Assembly: GCA_043732485.1 (NCBI GenBank)
Contig: JAYTHP010000173.1
Span: 1 to 10,807 of the forward strand
DNA: 10,807 nucleotides
From: Oligoflexia bacterium
Lineage (GTDB): Bacteria > Bdellovibrionota > UBA1018
Reading direction: 5' to 3'
Shown: positions 1 through 10,807 of the stretch, piece by piece
How positions within the stretch are numbered: the first letter of the stretch is position 1
How the letters are laid out: every line of letters starts with the position of its first letter
Position numbers and translations under genes: made by a program
The notes under the pieces: generated by a model
Told to the model about the DNA's origin: nothing
Databases searched by the model: none
The model's input: the letters and a program-made list of their open reading frames with translations, nothing else

Positions 1-118
1 AATTGTACTGTTGGGCAAAACTAAGGCTTGCCCAACAAGCGAATCACGCATTATTTCTACAACCGCTTGAAAAACTTTCTTGACAACCTCGATTGGATGT
101 GTCATTTCTACTCACCCC

Positions 119-1621
119 ATGAAAAATACAACCACCGCCTCCACTCACTTTACTACCAAAGTTTTTCAGTCGCTCTGCCAAGCTCTCTGCCAGCCTGGCA
201 AGCCCTTGCAGGGAGACAGCGCTCAAGGGGATGCAGCGACTCTCACTGCCAAAGTACCTGAAAATCTTGCGTCCATCGTCTCAAACAACTGCAAGCACAC
301 TGCTCTAGGCAATCTGCTGAAGCGGTTATTGCACGGTTTAAGAAAGGCGGTCGTAGCCATGCCATCATTGCCATTGTCATCGTCTTTGCCATCAACAGAA
401 CCCACAATAACAGCAAGGTCATTCACGCTGACTTCAGCCCCAAAGGCTTTGCTTGCAACCCTCAGTTTGACCCTTTTAGCGGTCGTTAGTCCCTCCCGCA
501 GTGCCCAAGCTGAAGGCTCAATCAGCGTCAGAGACGATTTAATCCGCATCAAGTCCCAGTTTTCTGAGATCCCAGGCATGCTCCACTGCGGCGATTTGCT
601 TGTTACCCTTGCTTCAGGTTCTTTCAGCAAGTTTCAGTTTGCTAGACTCTTTAAAACTAACGGGGCGAGGTCTTTTCCGCAGCTAAATCACAGCTTTTCA
701 AGAATTCTCCCTTCTCCCCACCTACCGACCGCTGCAGTCACCGAGAGCAGCGCGGCAGAGTGGGGGCAACTAGCACCAAGACGACCGAGCTGCCCTGCTG
801 GGCCGGCAATGGAACTCCTGTTGCTTAACCCTCTCGAATACGCCCTAAAATTTAGTCGCTCCGAAAACACGCTCACGCTTTTGCTTGAGCATTTTGAAAA
901 AAAAATCGCCAAGGAGTTTGTGACCCCAGGCTCGGCACATAATCTCGAACTGAGGCGGAGAAACTTTTACCGCTTCTGGACCGCCGAGTTTCGTCAGCCC
1001 CATCGGTACTCCCAGCTCTTAGCGCTCTTAAGTCCTCAAGCTAGCCATGCTCGGGCGCGCTCGCTCTTTTTTCAAAGAGGGGCCTTACACCTCACTCGTT
1101 TGTTGATCCTTGAGCAGTTGCAGTCCTACTCACTCTTAGACCGGGAACAGCTTTTTGAGTTGCACACCCACGCTGATTTCAGCAAAACGCTGGAAGAGGG
1201 CAACCTCATCCACGAAGTGGCCCAAGGCGTGATTAAGAGTTTTAACGGGTTTTCGCAACCGCAAGCAGAACGCTGGCTTAACCAATATTTAAGCTTTTAC
1301 TTTGAACTGGCCGTCAGTCCCCGGGTGCAAGAACCACTGATTGCCGCTGCTGCCAAAATGGCGCAACCGGCCCTTGCCTGCGCAGCCTTGCAAACCTTCG
1401 CGCACAAGCCTGAGCAAAAAACCTGGATGCTCGGGATGATCGAAGCAGCGGCCTACGAGATCAAGGATCAAGCCCGCGAAAATCAGACCCTGAACCGCCT
1501 CTTACCCATAGACCTGCTGGAGCGCCCGGACATGAACCCCCACGCAGGTGGCCGCGACGACGACTCCCCTTTCCCCTTGCTCTCAGATTTGCGAGTTTTT
1601 GGTATCAATGAAATGCCCTGA
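119..1621 (+). CDS. Hypothetical protein, probably exported or membrane-anchored, Leu/Ala-rich helical C-terminal region
   Basis: Open frame 80..1621 (513 codons). Start uncertain: ATG 119, or ATG 359 preceded by SD-like AAAGGCGG. Signal-peptide-like segment KALLATLSLTLLAVVSPSRSAQA|EG favours the later start. No family motif recognised. Confidence 0.7.
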   Translation: MKNTTTASTHFTTKVFQSLCQALCQPGKPLQGDSAQGDAATLTAKVPENLASIVSNNCKHTALGNLLKRLLHGLRKAVVAMPSLPLSSSLPSTEPTITARSFTLTSAPKALLATLSLTLLAVVSPSRSAQAEGSISVRDDLIRIKSQFSEIPGMLHCGDLLVTLASGSFSKFQFARLFKTNGARSFPQLNHSFSRILPSPHLPTAAVTESSAAEWGQLAPRRPSCPAGPAMELLLLNPLEYALKFSRSENTLTLLLEHFEKKIAKEFVTPGSAHNLELRRRNFYRFWTAEFRQPHRYSQLLALLSPQASHARARSLFFQRGALHLTRLLILEQLQSYSLLDREQLFELHTHADFSKTLEEGNLIHEVAQGVIKSFNGFSQPQAERWLNQYLSFYFELAVSPRVQEPLIAAAAKMAQPALACAALQTFAHKPEQKTWMLGMIEAAAYEIKDQARENQTLNRLLPIDLLERPDMNPHAGGRDDDSPFPLLSDLRVFGINEMP

Positions 1622-1734
1622 CAGAATGCGGGAAAAGAGTGCGAGAAACATGCCGTGACCGACCCAACACAACTAAGAGTGTGTCGCACGCCGCTTTCGC
1701 ACTTCTCTGCGCTCTTTGAGGCAGTTCAGGAAAC

Positions 1735-1768
1735 GTCAGGCCGCCACCGTGGACGCCGACTTTTTTTT
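1735..1768 (+). terminator. Putative intrinsic terminator downstream of the first ORF
   Basis: Imperfect GC-rich hairpin GTCaGGCcgCCA-ccg-TGGacGCCGAC followed directly by T8 (1761-1768), in the gap between convergent genes. Confidence 0.5.
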
Positions 1769-1816
1769 GAGAAAAAAGTGATCAGACTCCCCACTAAACC
1801 GAACTCACTGAATGAC

Positions 1817-2833
1817 CTAAAGGTCGGCCATGAGCAGCGCCCAGACTCGGTGCCGGGGACTAGCATTAAGCAAGACGCGGATCATCCCTAAGATCGGGAT
1901 CGCCACTAACATCCCGCCAATGCCCCACAAGAGATGCCCTGCAAATAGCCCTAAAAAAGTGAACAGCAAGTTCAAATTGAGTGAGCGCCCGAGGAATTTT
2001 GGTGTTAAAAAGTGCCCCTCAATGCTCGAAACGAGATACAAGAGCCCGTACAAAACCAGCAACGAGCCTGACTCCACCCCTGCTGCCAGGCCCGTGATCA
2101 TCGGCGGTGCTGCGGCGATAAAAAAGCCCACCGCCGGCACAAAGGTACTCGCGCCTAACAACACGCTAAACAGCGAGACATACTGCGAGCCGCACCCTTT
2201 TAAGATAATCGCATCCGTTACGGTGACCCAAACTGCAATAGCCATGCGGGTGAACAAAAACTTCTTCACTAAGGTGATCATTTGCTCCAGCACTTCGGCG
2301 TCGGGAAACAAAGCGTGCGCGGCTTTCTTGAAGTTCTTGCGCACCATCAAAATCAGGATCGAAAAGAGCAACACCAAGATAAACTCGGCGCCCCCTGAGG
2401 CCACCATCTTAAAACCTTCAAAAAGGGTGGTAAAAATCTTGCCTGAGTCCTCCGAGAGAAACACCGTCAGACTCTCGATGTCCAGCGAAGGGGTGAGGTT
2501 AAAAAACTGGGCAAAACTCGATTGATTGAGCTGACTCAGCAGCGACTTTAAGGCCTGCATGATGGCAGGAAAGTTGCGCACCAGCACGGTTGCTTCATGC
2601 ACCATCAAGCCTGCGGCCGCAAAAACCGGTAAAAAGAGTAAAAGCGCGCTTGCTAAAATGGCCACCCACTCAGGCACCTTCTTCGATTCTAGGAAGTTCA
2701 CCACAGGCGAGATCACAAAAGCCAGCAGCCCTGCGAGCAAAACAGGCACTAAAAAAGGGGAAGCCTCCCGTAAGCCCCAGACAATAACGACCCAACTGGC
2801 CCAAATCAGCGACTGTGGAATGGAATAACGCAT
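1817..2833 (-). CDS. AI-2E family transporter (PerM/UPF0118)
   Basis: ~340-aa multi-pass hydrophobic protein with family-typical segments PFLVPVLLAGLLAFVISPVVNFLE, IEGHFLTPKFLGRSLNLN and LWGIGGMLVAIP. Start ATG 2833 (or GTG 2848). Confidence 0.9.
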   Translation of the reverse strand: MRYSIPQSLIWASWVVIVWGLREASPFLVPVLLAGLLAFVISPVVNFLESKKVPEWVAILASALLLFLPVFAAAGLMVHEATVLVRNFPAIMQALKSLLSQLNQSSFAQFFNLTPSLDIESLTVFLSEDSGKIFTTLFEGFKMVASGGAEFILVLLFSILILMVRKNFKKAAHALFPDAEVLEQMITLVKKFLFTRMAIAVWVTVTDAIILKGCGSQYVSLFSVLLGASTFVPAVGFFIAAAPPMITGLAAGVESGSLLVLYGLLYLVSSIEGHFLTPKFLGRSLNLNLLFTFLGLFAGHLLWGIGGMLVAIPILGMIRVLLNASPRHRVWALLMADL

Positions 2834-2894
2834 AGCTTTTACTGCCACCTTTTTTCTTTCAAGAAGACCCCAAAAAACCCTTGTTTGTCTAGTA

Positions 2895-2923
2895 TCGATA
2901 AAATGTGCTTCTAGCTTTAAAAT
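2895..2923 (+). promoter_or_regulatory. Putative sigma70-type promoter for the 2964-5739 operon
   Basis: TCGATA (2895-2900), 17-bp spacer, TAAAAT (2918-2923), in the AT-rich divergent intergenic region, 40 nt before ATG 2964. Confidence 0.45.
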
Positions 2924-2963
2924 AACTAGCTGAAAGTTAAAAATTTGCTAACATCAGGGCTAT

Positions 2964-3371
2964 ATGAAGAAAAAAACCTCCGCCGCCGTCGCCGCTGCCA
3001 CCAAAAAGAAGAAGCCCGCCACCAAGCAAGCTGCCCCAAAACCCAAAAAAACCGTGAAAGCGCCTATCAAAAAACTTTTTGCCAGGGAAATCAGGCTCAA
3101 CTTGATTGACGACCTGTTGGACGAGATTTTTCATCTTTGTTGCCATGAGGTGGCCGAAGTAGGAGTGGCGCGCGATGCGATGTCACAAATTTTAAGCGCT
3201 GCTCTCACCGTCAGCAATCAACTGAAGCGCGAGTCCCAAAAGAAAGTCGCGCCTCACGCCCTCCACGTCAGCTCGCACCTCGCTTTGCACTGTGCGTGCA
3301 AGCAAGCTGCCCATCAGGAGCTGATTGTTCCGCTCCCTGAAGACGCTTGCTCCTCCGACGACGAGCATTAA
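2964..3371 (+). CDS. Small protein with histone-like Lys/Ala/Pro-rich N-terminal tail and His/Cys-rich helical domain (possible histone fold)
   Basis: 135 aa; 14 Lys in the first 37 residues; then amphipathic helices. Stop is 10 nt before the next ATG. The CDS itself is well supported, the fold call is tentative. Confidence 0.75.
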   Translation: MKKKTSAAVAAATKKKKPATKQAAPKPKKTVKAPIKKLFAREIRLNLIDDLLDEIFHLCCHEVAEVGVARDAMSQILSAALTVSNQLKRESQKKVAPHALHVSSHLALHCACKQAAHQELIVPLPEDACSSDDEH

Positions 3372-3381
3372 GCGTAAAACG

Positions 3382-5739
3382 ATGAAAGTCCTGATCATTG
3401 GAGCAGGAGCGGTAGGAGCGGTCTACGCCCACTTTTTGCAAAAAGGTGGAGCGGAAGTAGCCTTCTGGGTGAAACCGCATCAAGTCGACACCCTTTCGCA
3501 CGGGCTTACTTTGAAAAACCTGCGCCAGTTGCAGCGCCCAGTGGAGCGCCTGCAGCAGACCACCGCACTCTACAGTCAGCTCGCCGAGGTGCAGGGACAG
3601 GCGTGGGACTTCCTGGTCCTGGCGATTGCTTTTTCTGACCTCAAGACGGCTGCAGACTTGCGGGAGCTTTTTCTAGCCCTCACGCCTCGTGCCACCCCGG
3701 TGAGCTTATGCCTTGGGCTAGAAGACCGGGAGTCTTTGTTCCCGGTAAGCGACGCTTGGATCCACGGGATGGTGCCTTTTGTCAGCTTTAAGAGCCAAGA
3801 CAACGACGGCGACACTCCCTCTCCTCAAACCCTGCAAGCCGCAAAGGCTTCCGCTTGTTTTCATTTTTGGATCCCCCCCTTAGCGCAGGCTTTTTTTAGC
3901 ATGGCAGGCCTCCCCCACTCCGCGCAGCAAAGGGCGGCAAAAGCGTGGGTCCACTGCCTGCGCCAGGGTGGCTTTCCTGCAAGGCTCACCGCACAAGACG
4001 TCAGACACAAGGTGGTGATCCCCAACGCGGTGTTACTAGCGCTGGTGCTGACGCTTGAGCACGAGGGATGGCAACTCAAACCCGCGCTCACAGGCTTGCC
4101 GCTTGCGCGCATGGCACAAGCGGCGCGAGAAATTCTGCTGCTCACAGCCCGCAAAAGTCAAATGAAGCACTTTTGGCCTGGATTGCTGCAGCCTGTGCTC
4201 CTTAAGGGGCTCTTGCGCTTACTGTGTAGACCCTTGCTGGGTTTTCACTGGCTGGGGTTTGATTTTGAGGGGTTTTTAGTCAGCCATTTCACCAAAATTC
4301 GCAAGCAAACCCATCAAGAACTGGCAAGCTTGCTGCACTACGGCAAAACCCAAGGCATCGCAACCCCTGCCTTGCAAGGATTTTACCAGCCACTCCGGCC
4401 AGCCCGCCTCCTTGCCATGTGGGGCGAGCCAACCCACCCCACCGTGGAATTGCAAGAAGACGGCCAAGTCTTGCAACTCCACGTCAGTGCGAGGCGGACA
4501 ACAACCCTCCCGCAGCCAGGTGACTGGGTGGCTTTTTCCCTGAACCGCGCAGGCCAAGTGCAGGAGCTTGCGCAGCTAGCAAGGTGCGGTGCAGCCTGGA
4601 ACCCTGCAGATCCGGTCTTTTATGCGAGAAAAACAGCGACGGCGCACTTGAGTCGTTACGAGCGCCTCACTTCACGCGCCCGGCTGCTGCAATCCTTGCG
4701 CCAAACCCTGGAGCAAGACGGTTTCTTGGAAATAGAGCCTAAGACTTTAATCACCCATCCGGTGGTAGATCAGGCGATTGAATCTTTAGTCTGCGGAAGT
4801 CAGTTTTTACTCACCTCCTCTGAGTTTCAAATCAAACGCCTGATGATTGCAGGGTTTCCCCGGGTGTTTAGCTTGGCGAAGAATTTTCGTGCGGAAGGAG
4901 AAGATGCCTGGCACACGCAAGAGTTCACCATGCTGGAGTGGGCCAGGAGCTGGAGTAGCTTAGCGGACATTGAGCGCGACGCCCAGCGGCTGATCCAAGA
5001 CGCTTTTTTGAAGCTCTACCCCCTGCCTCCTGCCGGTTCACGTTCGTCTCCCGTCCCTTTCAGCTACCGCGGTCAGAGGCTGGATCTGATGGCAGCCGAT
5101 TGGCCGCGCCTGACGGTCAGTGAAAGTTTTGAAAAATACCTGAACTTTCCACCCTTGTCTGACTTTGAGATCCCCACGCTGCTTGCAGCTTGCAGCCAAG
5201 CAGGTTTGAACGTTCCTGAGCAGTTGATCCGCAGCACGCCGCAAGCGCCTATTGCATCCTTAAACGCACCCTTAAACGCACCCTTAAACGCACCCCTAGA
5301 CCCCCTCACCGACCAGCGCGGACTGCTCGTGTCCTACCTGCTCGATCAAGTCCAGCCTCACTTAGGCTTCCCACAGCCCGTGTTTCTCACCGAATGGCCG
5401 GCTTTTTTAACCTCATCTGCCCCCACCCTGAAAAACCGCCCGCTCTTAGCCTCCCGCAGCGAGTGTTACCTGGCAGGCGTTGAGATTGCCGATGGTTTCC
5501 CGTTCTTAACGGATCCGCACCAGCAAAAAGAGCTCTGGTTGCATGAAAACCAGCTGCGGCTTGCCCACCAGCAAGCCTGCGTGACCTTAGATCAACGCTA
5601 CCTGGAGGATCTCGCCCAAGGCTTACCCGAAGGTGCCGGCATGGCTTTAGGGGTCGATCGCCTGTTGATGATTTTGACGGATAGCGACGACATTGCCAAC
5701 GTCCAAAGTTTTTCCTCCCTCAACAGCGGTGAAATCTAA
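3382..5739 (+). CDS. Fusion protein: ketopantoate reductase (PanE/ApbA)-like oxidoreductase + OB-like linker + EpmA/GenX-like (LysRS paralogue) class II ligase
   Basis: N-terminus MKVLIIGAGAVGAVYAHFL (Rossmann GxGxxG, PanE type). The C-terminal ~360 aa carry EpmA-type motifs: RARLLQSLR..GFLEIE (motif 1), LLTSSEFQIKRL, KNFRAE..H.QEFTMLEW (motif 2), PVFLTEWP, GVEIADGF, GLPEGAGMALGVDRLLM (motif 3). One uninterrupted frame; ATG 3382 follows the upstream stop. Confidence 0.88.
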   Translation: MKVLIIGAGAVGAVYAHFLQKGGAEVAFWVKPHQVDTLSHGLTLKNLRQLQRPVERLQQTTALYSQLAEVQGQAWDFLVLAIAFSDLKTAADLRELFLALTPRATPVSLCLGLEDRESLFPVSDAWIHGMVPFVSFKSQDNDGDTPSPQTLQAAKASACFHFWIPPLAQAFFSMAGLPHSAQQRAAKAWVHCLRQGGFPARLTAQDVRHKVVIPNAVLLALVLTLEHEGWQLKPALTGLPLARMAQAAREILLLTARKSQMKHFWPGLLQPVLLKGLLRLLCRPLLGFHWLGFDFEGFLVSHFTKIRKQTHQELASLLHYGKTQGIATPALQGFYQPLRPARLLAMWGEPTHPTVELQEDGQVLQLHVSARRTTTLPQPGDWVAFSLNRAGQVQELAQLARCGAAWNPADPVFYARKTATAHLSRYERLTSRARLLQSLRQTLEQDGFLEIEPKTLITHPVVDQAIESLVCGSQFLLTSSEFQIKRLMIAGFPRVFSLAKNFRAEGEDAWHTQEFTMLEWARSWSSLADIERDAQRLIQDAFLKLYPLPPAGSRSSPVPFSYRGQRLDLMAADWPRLTVSESFEKYLNFPPLSDFEIPTLLAACSQAGLNVPEQLIRSTPQAPIASLNAPLNAPLNAPLDPLTDQRGLLVSYLLDQVQPHLGFPQPVFLTEWPAFLTSSAPTLKNRPLLASRSECYLAGVEIADGFPFLTDPHQQKELWLHENQLRLAHQQACVTLDQRYLEDLAQGLPEGAGMALGVDRLLMILTDSDDIANVQSFSSLNSGEI
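5258..5293 (+). repeat. In-frame 12-bp tandem repeat (CCTTAAACGCAC)x3 encoding LNAP x3
   Basis: Three perfect copies read directly, with a degenerate fourth (CCCTAGACCCCC) following. Confidence 0.95.
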
Positions 5740-6635
5740 AAGCGAGCGCTGCGTGCTTGCACGCCAGACGCAAACACCCGGTTCACCTTACCCTGCAGCA
5801 GGTGCTGAGCGCGTAGCTTTAGGCCAAAGCGCCCTGCAATCCGGTCGCCATCCTCAGAGACACTGCAGCAAACCAGGTTGACTCCAACTCTACCGCCACG
5901 CCTAGCCGCCTTCACCTTCTCTTGCTCCGCTTGGACTTGCGCTAGTTGCGCTGCAAAGTGGCGCATGAAGGCGCAAGAGAGGGCCGTTTTCCTCAAGGGG
6001 CCGACTAAGCTGTAATTAAACAGGTAGAGATGCAAATCGCGCCCCGGCTCCTTCCAAGCCTGCAGCTCCGGGCTATGGGGCCGCTGTTCCATGGGCGGCG
6101 GTAACGGCTGATGGTCGTGGGCGTGGTGATGACGCTGACGACGACGAGCTGAGGCGTCATCCCTCACCAGCCCGTCAAAGGTTTGTGCACTGATCGGAAA
6201 CCAGCCTGAATAACCCACCGGCATCCAGGCCCGGTGCTCGTTCCACGGTTCACGTATGCGGGCAAACCAGACGCTAAAGCCTTGCGGAAAATGCTGCAAC
6301 GCCCACAAGAGGCGAGCAAAGCTCACTTGATTCGAGGTCTCAGGGTAACTGGCGAGATCTGCCCAGTAACAAGCGCTGACCCACTTGCGAAACGCTTCAG
6401 ACGCACGCCCTCCTAACCCCGCGCCCGCACCCACTTGCTCTGTGAAACGCGCCCCTTCCCAGACGAAAAACGGACCCTCAACGGGCAGGCGATCTGGCAA
6501 CTCCCTCAAGCGCAACAAATTTGCCAAAAACTCTGTCCCCCGCGCTTCTTCGTGCCAGTCGGGTATCGCCTGTTGAATGGCCCGGAGACTTTCTAGCTCC
6601 CCCCACCCTTGAACCTCAAACCCCTCAAGACTCAT
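5736..6635 (-). CDS. Hypothetical protein with GNAT-like acyltransferase fold
   Basis: Open frame 5736..6773; start uncertain (ATG 6635, ATG 6716 or GTG 6773). Ordered GNAT-like elements: PVGYSGWFPI, LYLFNYSLVGPLRKTALSCAFMRHF (degenerate motif A), LVCCSVSEDGDRIAGRFGLK (motif B-like). Stop overlaps the stop of the fusion gene (5736-5739). Confidence 0.6.
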   Translation of the reverse strand: MSLEGFEVQGWGELESLRAIQQAIPDWHEEARGTEFLANLLRLRELPDRLPVEGPFFVWEGARFTEQVGAGAGLGGRASEAFRKWVSACYWADLASYPETSNQVSFARLLWALQHFPQGFSVWFARIREPWNEHRAWMPVGYSGWFPISAQTFDGLVRDDASARRRQRHHHAHDHQPLPPPMEQRPHSPELQAWKEPGRDLHLYLFNYSLVGPLRKTALSCAFMRHFAAQLAQVQAEQEKVKAARRGGRVGVNLVCCSVSEDGDRIAGRFGLKLRAQHLLQGKVNRVFASGVQARSARF

Positions 6636-6788
6636 CTTGCACCACGACTCAACCTTCCTCTCTCCTTGACTCTTTTGGACTCTCCTGGCCTCTCTCTTCT
6701 GGAGCGCGCAAATCATCAGGCACTCTCTCGTGCCAGGCGCGCTCAGCTCGATTGCCGAGTAAAACCCTGCCACGCAAGGCCCCGGAGT

Positions 6789-7163
6789 TTAATTACCGAG
6801 CTTTTTCAGCTCAGTTGCATGAATTTTTGCCTGATTCTCAAACCGACGCGCCTGAAAATACTGCCCTTGCCCTCTTGCCTCATGAGCCGCAGCCTTATTC
6901 TCGACGTAGGCGTCGGTGTGGAGCTGTGCTTTTTTCGAGTCCTGCTCACTCCATGCTTCTTGACTGCTTGACTGCCCGTTGGACAGGCGGCCGCTGGGTT
7001 GGGTTTCTGGCGCCACCGTCCTCGTCGCGCTTGCTTTGGCACCAAACCCGAACCTAGCGTGAGCCTCAGGCGGTAGCGCACCTGCCAGGAAAAAGAAAAC
7101 TACAGGCAAAGCGAACCATTGAACGGGGCGTTGCACGACGGGTAAGCTGGATGACATTAACAT
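6789..7163 (-). CDS. Small secreted hypothetical protein (124 aa)
   Basis: Strong SD AAGGAG 6 nt before ATG 7163; signal peptide WFALPVVFFFLAGALPPEAHA|RFG with A-x-A cleavage site; polar mature part. Confidence 0.75.
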   Translation of the reverse strand: MLMSSSLPVVQRPVQWFALPVVFFFLAGALPPEAHARFGFGAKASATRTVAPETQPSGRLSNGQSSSQEAWSEQDSKKAQLHTDAYVENKAAAHEARGQGQYFQARRFENQAKIHATELKKLGN

Positions 7164-7175
7164 AAAAAACTCCTT
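7164..7175 (-). promoter_or_regulatory. Shine-Dalgarno site of the small secreted protein
   Basis: Minus strand reads AAAAAAGGAGTTTTTT-ATG. Confidence 0.7.
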
Positions 7176-7412
7176 TTTTGTGGGATCCAAAATACACTTC
7201 TTACCCAACGCGCCCTTGTGGTGTTGGGATAAGGGGGAGCAACCACTGCTTTTCTTGCAAAAAAGGCAAAAAAAACATCTCTCTCTCTAGGCTCTACTGC
7301 TGCTGCTGCCGTTCTTTCATCTTACCGCACCTTGCTCCTTCCTGCCTAGCGGAGCTGTGTCGCGAAGGGCGTGTCAAAACCACCCCCCCCTTGCAGCCGA
7401 GTGCCACTCCCC

Positions 7413-7435
7413 ACGGCCCCCGGGCGCCGTTTTTT
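7413..7435 (+). terminator. Terminator-like hairpin with U-tract in the region upstream of the HDAC gene
   Basis: ACGGC (7413-7417) pairs with GCCGT (7426-7430), followed by TTTTT. The stem is short. Confidence 0.3.
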
Positions 7436-7615
7436 GCTTGAAAAAACTGGCCTGACCATTTACCGTCCTTTCATCCAGGGAGGCAAGCGCCTGATGAGCC
7501 CCGCAGGACTGTGCACCACCCTCACCACAGCTCCCACCCAAACAAACCTTTGAGGGTGGCAAGCCTGCACGCTCAAAGCAACTGATTCAATAATGCTACC
7601 GACAAACAAATCATC

Positions 7616-8821
7616 ATGCATGACCTAGCCCATGACCTAGCCGCAAACGCTCTCACCCCACCCCCTCGTTTCCAGATTCTTTCTCACCCTCAGTTATTGG
7701 AGCACGCAACCGCATACTCATCACCCTTAGGCTCCAGCTCAAGTTATCCTGAAAGCCCCGAGCGACTGCAAAGCGTTTTGCAGTCGCTGCAGCAAGGCCC
7801 GGCAAGTCGCGCTCTCGATGTGACTTGCACGCGGGTGGCGCAGTGGAGTGAACTTGCCTGGACCCATACGGCTGATTATCTGGCAAAAATTCAGCCCCTC
7901 GAAGGTCTTACAGGTGAATTTTTACCAGAAACCTTGTTCTCCCCGCACTCAGTGGAGGCCGCACGCCGTGCCGTCGGCCTAGGCCTTGAGCTGCTCGATC
8001 GCTGGCTGAGCCAACAGCTCGAGGGCGGGTTTGCCCTAGTGCGTCCCCCAGGCCACCACGCGACTGCCACTGCAGGCGGGGGGTATTGTATTTTTAACAC
8101 GCTTGGGGTGGTGGCCCACGCTGCCTTGCGGCAGGGCGTGCGGCGTATTTTAGTCTTAGACTGGGACGTCCACCATGGCAACGGCACCCAGTCGCTCTTT
8201 TACGCCGATCCCCGCGTGCTATTTATCGATTGGCATCAGGAAAACTTGTTTCCTGAGAACTCAGGGCGTCTCGAAGAGCAAGGTGTTGGCGAGGGACGAG
8301 GCTTTACGATCAACTTTCCCATGCCACATTCCTGCCAGGACAACGATTACCTTTTTCTCTTCGATCAAGGAGTCGCACCCCAAGCCCGTGAGTTTGATCC
8401 GGAACTCATTTTGGTGTCTTGTGGGCTGGATGCTCATGAGGCGGATCCTTTAGGATCCATGCGCCTCACCACCCAAGGCTTCACGCAGTTGTCTGGTCGC
8501 TTGCGCAAACTTCAGCGCCAACTCCCACTTAAAAAAGCCTGCCAAAACCCACAGCAACCAGGCGTGCTGTTTTTTCTCGAAGGCGGCTATGAGGTGTCGG
8601 ACTTAGCCAAAAACGTTGCAGCGGTGATTGCTCCCTTTTTAACGCAGCCAACCCCTGCAGCCTCCGGTCACGCCCCGGACCACCTCCTCACCGCCAGCGA
8701 CTTGCAGGCGGCGGCTGACAATGACGACGAGAACCACAACGCAAAGGCCATCGACCCCCAGCAAGTGCGAGAGGAGGTCAAGCTCCTGCTCAAGCGCGTG
8801 CAAGCGCAAAGAGCGTCATGA
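7616..8821 (+). CDS. Zn-dependent histone deacetylase family protein (AcuC/AphA, class II-like)
   Basis: Motifs YPESPERL, RPPGHHA, GYCIFN, LDWDVHHGNGTQ, GEGRGFTINFP, SCGLDAHEADPLG, LEGGY. Catalytic His pair, Zn ligands (D, H, D) and Tyr are all present. Confidence 0.95.
   Translation: MHDLAHDLAANALTPPPRFQILSHPQLLEHATAYSSPLGSSSSYPESPERLQSVLQSLQQGPASRALDVTCTRVAQWSELAWTHTADYLAKIQPLEGLTGEFLPETLFSPHSVEAARRAVGLGLELLDRWLSQQLEGGFALVRPPGHHATATAGGGYCIFNTLGVVAHAALRQGVRRILVLDWDVHHGNGTQSLFYADPRVLFIDWHQENLFPENSGRLEEQGVGEGRGFTINFPMPHSCQDNDYLFLFDQGVAPQAREFDPELILVSCGLDAHEADPLGSMRLTTQGFTQLSGRLRKLQRQLPLKKACQNPQQPGVLFFLEGGYEVSDLAKNVAAVIAPFLTQPTPAASGHAPDHLLTASDLQAAADNDDENHNAKAIDPQQVREEVKLLLKRVQAQRAS
7619..7642 (+). 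repeat. 12-bp tandem duplication (CATGACCTAGCC)x2 encoding HDLA x2
   Basis: Two perfect copies directly after the HDAC start codon. Confidence 0.9.
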
Positions 8822-8847
8822 GCGAGAGACGAGCGAGCGGCAAGGAC

Positions 8848-10080
8848 TCAGCACGTTGTCCCACCGCCACCTGCGCCAGGCGAAGGAGATTGCAAAGGCG
8901 GGCGTGAGGGCCGACGTAGTGAAGGAGTCGAGATGAGCATCGCACACAGCAACACGCCCCAAGACTTCACCGAGAGTCGTTGCAACAATGCACCCGTCGT
9001 GCTGCCTAGGGTCTTTTGCGTGAACGCGGCAATCATCAGGATCCCGAGCACGCTAAGCGCGATCAATGTCCTTTTTTCCGCTTTGTGGAGCGTCGGGTGA
9101 GAAGGATCATCATGCTCCTGACAGGCGTTGACACAACCGTGCAACGTCAGGGTTGCCAGCGGAAAGGCCAAGACAAAACTATGAAAGCCTGCCAGCGGTT
9201 GCACCGTGGCACTGAGCGCAAGCCAGCCAGCCCAGCGCTGATCTGCGCTTAAATGTTGCGAGCGGAGGCGCCAAAACACGGCAAGCACCAAGCTCAGCGC
9301 TAGGGTGAGCGCTAGCATCAAGCCCGTCTGCTGTTCATCCAGTTCGAAAAGGCGAAAGAGCATCGACACAAGCCCTTGCGCTTGACTCCCCTTCACGGAG
9401 ATTTTCACCACCCCTGCCGCATCGATGCCAGGACCTGTGGCAGCCCGGTAGGATGCCATTAAATCCGAAAAACTTTGATGATGGGCCAGGAAAGCCGGAA
9501 TCGAAAGCCCGGTCAAGAGCACGAGCAGGCAAGCCACCCTACGCACGTCCCCTCGTTTCCACTGAAAGCCCAATAACGGAAAAAGCGTTACCAGTTTGAT
9601 GCTAAGTGCGTAGCTGAGCAGTAAAGTTGCGCAGTTTCGTAGCTGATGTTGGTAGACTGGTAAAAGCGCTAACGCCAGTGCCGTCAGTGGGAGTGAGACT
9701 TGGCCATCAAAAGCGTGCACCGTCCAGATCCCACTCCAAGTGACAAGCGATAAGCTCAGTAAACCGAGTGAGACCCGTTTTTTTAGCCACAACGCCACAA
9801 AGACCAGGGACATTGCCTCAACCCCACCCCAAATCAGTTTTGCTGCCGCAAGCGGTAAGCACCCGAGCGGTAAAAACAAGGGCAAGATCCACGGCGGGTA
9901 TTTAAAGGTCATCATGCCGTCGCGCGCCACCGAGTAAATCGGTGCGCCTTCGGTGACAAAAAGGTGCGCCGTGTTCCAATAAACCGTAAAATCTGGTGCA
10001 TTTTTTGCGGTGTTGCTTGCTAATGCCACCGCCAAAAGGATCAGCAGCAGCCAAAAACCTCCGTTGCTCAGCCTGATCAT
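8848..10080 (-). CDS. Glycosyltransferase family 87 (DUF2029), GT-C membrane glycosyltransferase
   Basis: 410-aa polytopic membrane protein with DFTVYW after TM1, FKYPPW, GQVS and SIKL motifs in the order typical of GT87. Confidence 0.85.
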   Translation of the reverse strand: MIRLSNGGFWLLLILLAVALASNTAKNAPDFTVYWNTAHLFVTEGAPIYSVARDGMMTFKYPPWILPLFLPLGCLPLAAAKLIWGGVEAMSLVFVALWLKKRVSLGLLSLSLVTWSGIWTVHAFDGQVSLPLTALALALLPVYQHQLRNCATLLLSYALSIKLVTLFPLLGFQWKRGDVRRVACLLVLLTGLSIPAFLAHHQSFSDLMASYRAATGPGIDAAGVVKISVKGSQAQGLVSMLFRLFELDEQQTGLMLALTLALSLVLAVFWRLRSQHLSADQRWAGWLALSATVQPLAGFHSFVLAFPLATLTLHGCVNACQEHDDPSHPTLHKAEKRTLIALSVLGILMIAAFTQKTLGSTTGALLQRLSVKSWGVLLCAMLISTPSLRRPSRPPLQSPSPGAGGGGTTC

Positions 10081-10289
10081 CTCACCTCATCTCCCAAGAC
10101 TCAGGCTATCTGAACGCCCAGTCAGTTTCCAGCCCCAAATGCGCCAGCACTGAAGCTTGTGCTCGTTACAAAACGGGCGCAACATCGCCCAAAACCCAGG
10201 GGGCGGGCGGGGGGAAAATCAAAGGGCAATTACCGCTGATGAGATCCTGACACCTCTCAAAAATGGGTACAGCCCGGCGCGACGCTCCC

Positions 10290-10313
10290 TGAGTCTAGCA
10301 ATGATTCTAGCAA
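10290..10313 (+). repeat. 12-bp direct repeat TGA(G/T)TCTAGCAA x2 in non-coding DNA
   Basis: TGAGTCTAGCAA then TGATTCTAGCAA, 11/12 identical. Confidence 0.8.
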
Positions 10314-10807
10314 TCCTGCTCTCAGCCCATTAAGGCATCATCTCTAAAAAACCGACAGTTCAATCAGCACTGCGGGTATTATTGCGATTTCAAGGACTTA
10401 TCAAACCTATCCTCGAGAGCTTCTGGGATTTTGCAAGCTCGTCAAAAAACGTTTCTTGAACTCTCTCTCCTATTGAAATCTCGAAAAATTTTTTAGATTT
10501 TTGGCTCCCCAGAGTTCCCATTTCATCGGTATAGACTTATTTTCTTGCACTAAGAGCGCGACAACGATTGACTGATAAGGAATAGGCCTCGGCCCTCAAA
10601 ATAATTCTTTTCGCTCCTGACTAAACTCAGCTTAGCCTTTCTAGGTAGGCTACTTACTCTCGAAGGACTGGCTTGAGGGAACGGACCTCATCAGACGGTC
10701 ACCTCTTACACTTGAACCTTGCGCCAAAATCATAAAAAAAGATTAAGATCGGCCACCATGGCTTGGTTAAGCCGCTTCTAGCCTCGACTTTACCTGATAG
10801 CAGCGTT

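Follow-up and report, generated by a model that had tools for sequence, protein, structure and literature searches.

Three bacterial modifications of elongation factor P (EF-P) are listed in a 2026 review, in which the beta-lysylated form is described as constitutively active in most cases (PMC12856214). The closest described relative of the enzyme analysed here is EpmA, the (R)-beta-lysine ligase of EF-P, in which the choice between beta- and alpha-lysine has been reported to depend on A298 (10.64898/2026.07.07.736966) and in which H108 and R235, and likewise E103 in the enzyme of that study, are required for EF-P aminoacylation (PMC3950694). We report the analysis of a 10,807-nucleotide stretch of DNA from an Oligoflexia bacterium (assembly GCA_043732485.1, contig JAYTHP010000173.1, positions 1 to 10,807; hereafter, the window), which encodes an EpmA-like ligase with an altered substrate pocket, an unnamed GNAT-fold protein, and an HDAC-family deacylase. 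We propose, with a probability of roughly 0.5, that these three genes form a variant EF-P modification pathway of a protect-ligate-deprotect type. The initial annotation of the window, made from the sequence letters and their open reading frames (ORFs), had singled out the ligase and had missed both partner genes.

RESULTS

The window encodes an EpmA-like ligase that lacks the presumed side-chain amine ligands

The ligase forms the C-terminal part of a 785-amino-acid ORF (3382-5739, + strand). This part matches tRNA-synt_2, has EpmA TIGR00462 as its top NCBIfam model (200 bits, below the cut-off of 286.9), and has the EpmA/GenX entries 3g1z, 3a5z, and 3a5y as its closest PDB sequences; it scores 131 bits on the lysyl-tRNA synthetase (LysRS) model TIGR00499, short of the cut-off of 427.6. 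It has no full anticodon-binding domain, and it has Ala, not Gly, at the position of EpmA residue 298. The ligase comprises the following elements:

4417..4650, + strand: small beta-rich N-terminal extension (strands in residues 2-55 of the model; homologue lengths)
4651..5739, + strand: EpmA-derived class IIb ligase catalytic domain with a rewired side-chain pocket (TIGR00462, PDB matches, residue mapping, tree)
5254..5295, + strand: 12-bp tandem repeat, 3.5 copies (Tandem Repeats Finder score 77)

The N-terminal extension is found in family members of ~410-440 amino acids and is missing from members of ~330 amino acids. The tandem repeat encodes a loop insertion that is modelled with low confidence (predicted local distance difference test, pLDDT, <50 at model residues 277-291).

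Residues were mapped by aligning 389 sequences with the EpmA and LysU of E. coli, for which MG1655 translations were used; EpmA numbering is used throughout, and LysU residues are given in mature numbering. The alignment yields the following correspondences, of which those at 4819, 5500, and 5644 were absent from the initial annotation:

4819: Ser at EpmA P77 (P77S)
4822: Glu at EpmA E78 (kept)
4888: Arg at EpmA R100 (kept)
4936: Glu at EpmA E116 (kept)
4942: Ala at EpmA Y118, LysU Y280 (Y118A)
5482: Glu at EpmA E244 (kept)
5491: Asp at EpmA N247, LysU N424 (N247D)
5500: Pro at EpmA H250 (H250P)
5503: Phe at EpmA E251, LysU E428 (E251F)
5644: Ala at EpmA A298 (kept)
5659: Arg at EpmA R303 (kept)

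We take Y118 and E251 (LysU Y280 and E428) to be the ligands of the lysine epsilon-amine, LysU N424 to be a carboxylate contact, and E78 and E116 to be the ligands of the alpha- or beta-amine, as in the structures of LysU and EpmA; literature searches found no paper giving these residue numbers. The window ligase keeps E78, R100, H108, E116, R235, E244, A298, and R303 and carries P77S, Y118A, N247D, H250P, and E251F, and the class IIb ATP and Mg set, comprising R100, E237, E244, and R303, is intact. All residues named in the initial annotation align with their E. coli EpmA and LysU counterparts at the positions listed, and its two structural claims, an intact adenylating site and the loss of both epsilon-amino ligands (Y118A and E251F), are borne out both in the window and in the homologues described below.

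The pocket changes mark a single clade within the EpmA radiation

A protein search returned 538 matches, and the residue counts in this paragraph refer to the best 120 of these 538 homologues. Position 118 is A in 94 and G in 26, and position 251 is F in 98 and S in 22, so that neither Y118 nor E251 occurs in any of them; position 247 is D in 86 and N in 34, and position 77 is T in 118 and S in 2. E78, R100, H108, E116, R235, E244, A298, and R303 are kept in 120/120. In a control set of canonical EpmA sequences, picked by TIGR00462 score, 32/32 keep P77, Y118, N247, and E251. Of the four residues that contact the EF-P acceptor loop in EpmA (H52, E103, H108, and R235), the window thus keeps H108 and R235; H52, present in 70/120, is Ala in the window. 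Position 103 is D or E in 120/120, G in the window, and P in 30/32 canonical EpmA; we assign it no weight, since most canonical copies belong to related genomes, in which the EF-P loop may not be the same.

In a broader collection of 217 distinct variant rows, with seven partial rows left unclassified, A, G, T, and D also occur at position 251, in addition to F and S, and Y118 is retained in two rows. The variant label in this set is defined by the pocket residues, so that only the tree provides independent evidence. An alignment and tree against EpmA and LysRS, the check put forward in the initial annotation, place the variants as one clade inside the EpmA radiation: in a FastTree analysis of 164 rows, the 99 variant rows all share a single branch (Shimodaira-Hasegawa, SH, support 100), and an interim IQ-TREE analysis of 39 rows, which excludes the seven pocket columns and carries no support values, groups 18/18 variant rows. 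When the tree is rooted on LysRS, the variant clade nests among EpmA, with its exact sister group not resolved. The sequence comparisons thus indicate that the variant ligase is a descendant of the EpmA lineage.

A decaying EpmA pseudo-enzyme would account for features of the window copy, which has a long branch (1.07), a repeat insertion, and an unusual fusion. The same pocket changes are present in all of the best 120 of the 538 homologues, in one clade, with all catalytic residues invariant, and the partner genes are kept across at least eight phylum-level labels. We therefore rejected decay, which these observations render extremely improbable.

The variant ligase displaces EpmA in genomes that keep EF-P and an aminomutase

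The source genome (89% complete) contains a separate intact LysRS (C196), a single efp gene encoding a PGKG loop, and a single EpmB/KamA-like gene (G000:C141, L289:4339-5712). No canonical epmA was found in this 89% complete genome, the second TIGR00462 match being LysRS. The absence of efp and epmB from the window, which the initial annotation had recorded, is confirmed by family scans, and both genes are located elsewhere in the genome. The EF-P of the source genome has Ser in place of K31. A deoxyhypusine-synthase-family gene (PF01916; L289:5888-6871) lies on the same strand, 175 bp past the EpmB/KamA-like gene, a pairing not seen in the other fetched loci, whose flanks are short.

Among carriers of the variant ligase, analysed under 44 handles that correspond to 43 distinct genomes (G009 and G082 give identical matches), canonical EpmA scores above the cut-off in 2/43 distinct genomes, and the variant ligases themselves score 181-267 bits on TIGR00462. 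Among 41 relatives, canonical EpmA scores above the cut-off in 32, with three more at 273-282 bits, and in 0/3 of the variant carriers included (G000, G009, and G024). The variant ligase thus displaces canonical EpmA. Canonical EpmA and the variant module are both present in L108 (genome G083) and in L109/L288 (genome G060), and in G060 the canonical EpmA gene lies ~1.3 kb from efp.

A KamA/EpmB-family aminomutase is present in 38/44 carriers, and most of the KamA-family rows listed have acidic residues at the positions that we take to be lysine ligands. An efp gene is present in 27/28 carriers examined, and the PGKG loop is present in 26/26 aligned carrier EF-Ps, from which an alignment filter had dropped second paralogues and one long ORF.

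The proposal in the initial annotation that the ligase is "probably not lysine-specific" is supported, in that the loss of both epsilon-amino ligands would probably leave an enzyme that does not ligate free lysine or free beta-lysine. Its further proposal, that the substrate is a neutral or hydrophobic acid, is not. The retention of E78, E116, and A298 in all of the best 120 homologues, the displacement of EpmA, and the retention of the aminomutase and of PGKG EF-P make a lysine derivative with a masked side chain the more likely substrate and suggest that the acceptor is probably still EF-P.

In a broader form of the latter proposal, the substrate is either a neutral or hydrophobic acid or else a non-lysine beta-amino acid, the acceptor may differ from EF-P, and the compound in question is also processed by the GNAT and the HDAC. 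The predominance of F at position 251 (98/120) and the uniform A/G at position 118 (120/120) are consistent with such a substrate, as are N247D, which puts an acid near the presumed carboxylate site, and the lack of an aminomutase gene in all 79 ligase loci. Against it stand the invariance of E78, E116, and A298; the range of residues at position 251 (F, S, A, G, T, and D), which is more readily explained by a loss of charge than by a hydrophobic pocket of defined shape; the displacement of EpmA almost everywhere; the location of efp inside the cluster in two phyla; and the finding of no other recurrent biosynthetic neighbour. We consider this alternative quite unlikely.

The ligase is associated with a GNAT-fold protein and an HDAC-family deacylase

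The two partner genes in the window are:

5736-6635, - strand: unnamed GNAT-fold protein, 299 amino acids from the ATG at 6635 (profile A2 match, E 1.7e-61)
7616..8821, + strand: HDAC-family Zn-dependent deacylase (PF00850, E 7e-78, 262 bits)

The GNAT gene is convergent with the ligase gene, with overlapping stop codons. A scan of species genomes yielded 79 ligase loci, the window row being removed from the counts. The record titles cover Chlamydiota, Bdellovibrionota, Myxococcota, Alphaproteobacteria, Spirochaetota, Patescibacteria, Chloroflexota, and Planctomycetota; two other records, titled as an archaeon and as Bifidobacterium, may be mis-binned, judging from their places in the tree. 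Carriers in culture include Chondromyces apiculatus DSM 436, Sorangium So ce388, and So ce1099. Clustering of the neighbouring genes over the 79 loci revealed two recurrent families, both of which are also in the window, and no further recurrent biosynthetic neighbour. Profiles detect the GNAT family in 52 loci and the HDAC in 48; the two occur together in 42, with gene order and strand varying between module loci. Neither a GNAT nor an HDAC is present in 32 short loci around canonical epmA (0/32 for each). Promoter and terminator scans gave results at or near chance.

The association extends to whole genomes. Six of 401 genomes in the phylum contain the variant ligase (E <=1e-75); these six also contain the full-length GNAT, which is present in 0/395 others, two of which have weak partial matches only. 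Of the 41 relatives, none but the three carriers has the family GNAT or the HDAC type with high scores (at least 389 bits; next best, 217), and this holds for unlinked genes as well. In a larger set, 48/57 carrier genomes contain the family GNAT. Kin are not independent in these counts, and ligase-linked loci served to build the profiles; a GNAT without a ligase was free to appear in the scan, but none did. The three proteins have correlated pairwise distances over 39 complete loci (0.71-0.76), and strong splits in the ligase tree are compatible with the GNAT tree in 18/20 cases and with the HDAC tree in 19/20, an agreement to which shared descent of the hosts contributes.

The efp gene is inside the cluster in 2/79 loci: L013 has the order efp-HDAC-GNAT, convergent with the ligase, and L038 has the order GNAT-ligase-efp. 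The loci L039 and L051, from two Micavibrio-like carriers, have no family GNAT; directly behind the ligase they have an unrelated GNAT, whose RGQGxG motif is intact. Among PDB sequences, this GNAT best matches SSAT2 and thialysine N-epsilon-acetyltransferases (E 7e-7 to 2e-5) and streptothricin acetyltransferase.

Two variant ligases, L041:7716-8975 and L045:3707-5059, have Asp at the position of E251 and belong to genomes with no detected family GNAT, one of them likewise with no detected HDAC; they may represent a return to free beta-lysine after partner loss, or assembly gaps. L084 apparently contains two variant-ligase copies ~8 kb apart (7917-9197 and ~15980-17185), reflecting a duplication or an assembly artefact.

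The partners could also act at the level of protein. In this alternative, a ligase with a relaxed pocket attaches free beta-lysine to EF-P, and the GNAT and the HDAC are a writer and an eraser that switch EF-P by acting on EF-P Lys34, on the amine of the attached beta-lysyl group, or on the ligase itself. EpmB/KamA is retained in 38/44 carriers; N-terminal protein acetyltransferases are among the GNAT fold matches; the distal pocket of EpmA is described as permissive (10.64898/2026.07.07.736966); and unmodified B. subtilis EF-P is acetylated on a loop lysine, an acetylation that is there treated as a side reaction (PMC5885033). The alternative leaves unexplained why the loss of the epsilon-amino ligands coincides precisely with the clade in which the GNAT was gained, canonical EpmA keeping them in 32/32, and why the ligase and the GNAT match across the phylum (6/6 versus 0/395 genomes). 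We regard it as unlikely.

The GNAT family has an atypical CoA motif and conserved polar residues

The GNAT family comprises 159 proteins and has no match in Pfam or NCBIfam. A model of the member from L013 (pLDDT 91) has a GNAT fold (Foldseek E 1.5e-7; Z 13.7, root-mean-square deviation 2.6 over 161 residues), and its top matches are tied within ~1 Z: CurA GNATL (13.7), SxtA (13.6), GphF (13.0), and serotonin N-acetyltransferase (12.9), with N-terminal protein acetyltransferases also among the matches. The window GNAT keeps the family-invariant residues D102, P143, Y146, and S190, the near-invariant Y106, R117, and R170, and the conserved N188, and has N in place of the conserved D111; a pocket containing Asp and Arg could well accommodate an amino acid acceptor. 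Across 157 aligned members, Thr is present at the strand end in 129, and no His is conserved at >=85%.

Other searches placed the family no further. A HlyC-like acyltransferase lead (one member at E 0.04) found nothing in five genomes, nor in controls, and is uninformative; an ESM Atlas search with the window GNAT returned only unnamed clusters at 0.90, a weak result; and a PDB sequence search with the GNAT profile returned a chance match only. A metagenome scan from the GNAT side yielded two loci, L231, in which an HDAC adjoins the GNAT on a 1.9-kb contig, and L232, a weak partial match.

These fold matches bear on an alternative in which the acyl group is not a transient acetyl group. The acyl-beta-lysyl group on EF-P could be a permanent working mark, with the HDAC recycling free acyl-beta-lysine; the donor could be a longer acyl-coenzyme A (acyl-CoA) or acyl-acyl carrier protein (acyl-ACP); or the GNAT could be decarboxylase-like and make the ligase substrate. 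The top folds, the CurA GNATL, SxtA, and GphF decarboxylases (Z 13.7, 13.6, and 13.0), and the atypical CoA motif of the module GNAT favour a non-acetyl group. Enzymes of the CurA/GphF/SxtA type use a catalytic His and a Thr/Ser pair, and no His is conserved at >=85% in the 157 members; serotonin N-acetyltransferase (Z 12.9) ties with the decarboxylase matches; and a standard acetyl-CoA-type GNAT occupies the same position in L039 and L051. In favour of the alternative, free acetyl-lysine and lysine are substrates of HDAC6 CD1 and SSAT2 (10.64898/2026.05.22.727066); against it, the lysine marks known on EF-P have a free terminal amine (PMC12856214). On balance, a non-acetyl or permanent group is quite unlikely.

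The HDAC-family protein has an intact catalytic site

H147, H148, D182, D184, H186, D272, and Y325 are invariant across 38 aligned module HDACs, and the catalytic set of the window HDAC is intact, with its His-His dyad, Asp-His-Asp zinc ligands, and catalytic Tyr. The HDAC gene of the window is oriented opposite to that in the usual HDAC-GNAT arrangement, and a 139-amino-acid ORF with a signal-peptide-like stretch (6789-7208, - strand) sits between the GNAT and HDAC genes. In-frame 12-bp tandem repeats occur both in the ligase loop (5254-5295) and at the start of the HDAC gene (7619-7642), and the three module proteins of the source genome are all divergent or insertion-bearing.

The ApbA-like fusion and the remaining genes of the window

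The N-terminal part of the ligase ORF is a further domain:

3382..4416, + strand: ApbA/PanE-like Rossmann domain, fused in frame to the ligase (PF02558, E 6e-8, amino acids 3-137)

No homologue of amino acids 1-345 of the ORF was found among scored proteins of 431-1374 amino acids, shorter stand-alone forms being outside the search, and no ApbA-like gene was found in the other ligase loci fetched. The domain is the sole PF02558 match in the source genome. Contigs of two possible source runs span the ApbA-like region without differences and with the same open frame; contigs of two glacier runs match at >=99% in pieces, leaving the fusion junction uncovered. The fusion appears to be particular to the source genome and outside the conserved module, and we read the ORF as a local fusion of neighbouring genes. 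A functional link through pantoate/beta-alanine chemistry was considered and set aside, there being no fused homologue at the lengths searched and none near other loci.

A 135-amino-acid ORF (2964-3371) with a very lysine-rich N-terminus and no convincing family ends 10 bp before the fused ORF. A 513-amino-acid ORF without a family (80-1621), an AI-2E transporter (1817-2848), and a GT87 glycosyltransferase (8848-10080) are also encoded; none of these three recurs near the ligase elsewhere.

DISCUSSION

The pathway that we propose would comprise four steps. First, the EpmB/KamA-family aminomutase, the gene for which is present, would make beta-lysine. Second, the module protein with the GNAT fold would acylate, and probably acetylate, the epsilon-amine of free beta-lysine. 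Third, the rewired EpmA would adenylate N-epsilon-acyl-beta-lysine and transfer it to EF-P Lys34: E78 and E116 would still grip the beta-amine and the A298 gate is kept, while the Y118 to A/G change would make room for the acyl group and the loss of E251 would remove the charge that selects a free epsilon-ammonium group. Fourth, the HDAC, with its intact catalytic residues, would strip the acyl group to give active beta-lysyl-EF-P, making the activation of EF-P tunable. This single scheme would account jointly for the pocket, the partners, and the displacement of EpmA.

Several observations weigh against this pathway. E103, H108, and R235 are kept in LysRS too and do not single out a protein acceptor. 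GNAT-HDAC gene pairs often target protein lysines, as with AcuA/AcuC. The aminomutase was not detected in 6/44 carriers and the family GNAT was not detected in 9/57 carrier genomes, completeness being not given for either set; the HDAC is present in seven of these nine and absent from the other two. Within the 79 clusters, efp is found in only two and kamA in none. The case of a displacing GNAT comes from two related loci of one lineage with weak E-values. GNAT-like decarboxylases are among the top folds of the L013 model, and the usual Gly-rich CoA motif, which we take to be R/Q-x-x-G-x-G/A in canonical GNATs, is missing, the consensus of the 157 members being L-K/R-K-S/T-x-L-S. The module GNAT was rejected as an AblB, the described N-epsilon-acetyltransferase of beta-lysine, with a TIGR03827 match in 0/37 members and the cut-off passed in 0/5 carrier genomes. 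Finally, a canonical EpmA core, in the form of an A298G chimera, already takes N-epsilon-acetyl- and succinyl-lysine (10.64898/2026.07.07.736966), so that the rewiring could serve only to exclude the free substrate.

Taken as a whole, we tentatively place at slightly under even odds the claim that an undescribed EF-P route exists in at least eight phylum-level groups, combining an aminoacyl-tRNA-synthetase paralogue selective for N-acyl-beta-amino acids with unmasking of the mark by an HDAC-family enzyme. The variant and its module are undescribed in the literature searched, for which coverage was thin for subscription papers and which left out preprint supplements. Surveys type EF-P by the mere presence of EpmA and EpmB (PMC11388002), so that the carrier genomes would probably pass as ordinary. 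If the proposal is correct, translation of polyproline would be subject to a reversible switch set by acyl-CoA levels, EF-P activation would gain an acylated intermediate and an eraser, and the unnamed GNAT family would gain a function. The ligase would also be a natural enzyme for N-acyl-beta-amino acids, of direct use in engineering EpmA for genetic code expansion.

Comparison with known systems

The variant ligase resembles EpmA (GenX/PoxA/YjeA, TIGR00462; 3A5Y, 3A5Z, and 3G1Z) in its class IIb core, in S76, D/E50, EWxR, and A298, in the motif-2 and motif-3 arginines, and in H108 and R235; it is found with EpmB/KamA and a PGKG EF-P, and it fills the place of EpmA. Unlike EpmA, it has other residues throughout the clade at P77, Y118, N247 (in most members), H250, and E251, does not reach the family cut-off, and is linked to a GNAT and an HDAC. 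Because it fails this cut-off as well as the test of side-chain ligands, it ought not to be classified as EpmA. With class II LysRS (LysS/LysU) it shares the fold (TM ~0.74) and the ATP-site residues; it differs in having Ala at 298, in having no full anticodon-binding domain, and in the loss of the lysine side-chain ligands.

The proposed intermediate, N-epsilon-acetyl-beta-lysine, would be the compound that the AblA/AblB system (TIGR03827) makes with an aminomutase and a GNAT (PMC2821294). Unlike in that system, the module GNAT has no TIGR03827 match, and the compound would be the substrate of a ligase and not an end product. SSAT2/thialysine N-epsilon-acetyltransferase together with HDAC6 CD1 likewise joins a GNAT and a Zn-dependent deacylase acting on the lysine epsilon-amide, and AcuA/AcuC-type writer-eraser pairs show the same pairing on the same bond. 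What sets the present module apart from both is its link with an aminoacyl-tRNA-synthetase paralogue and, at two loci, with efp.

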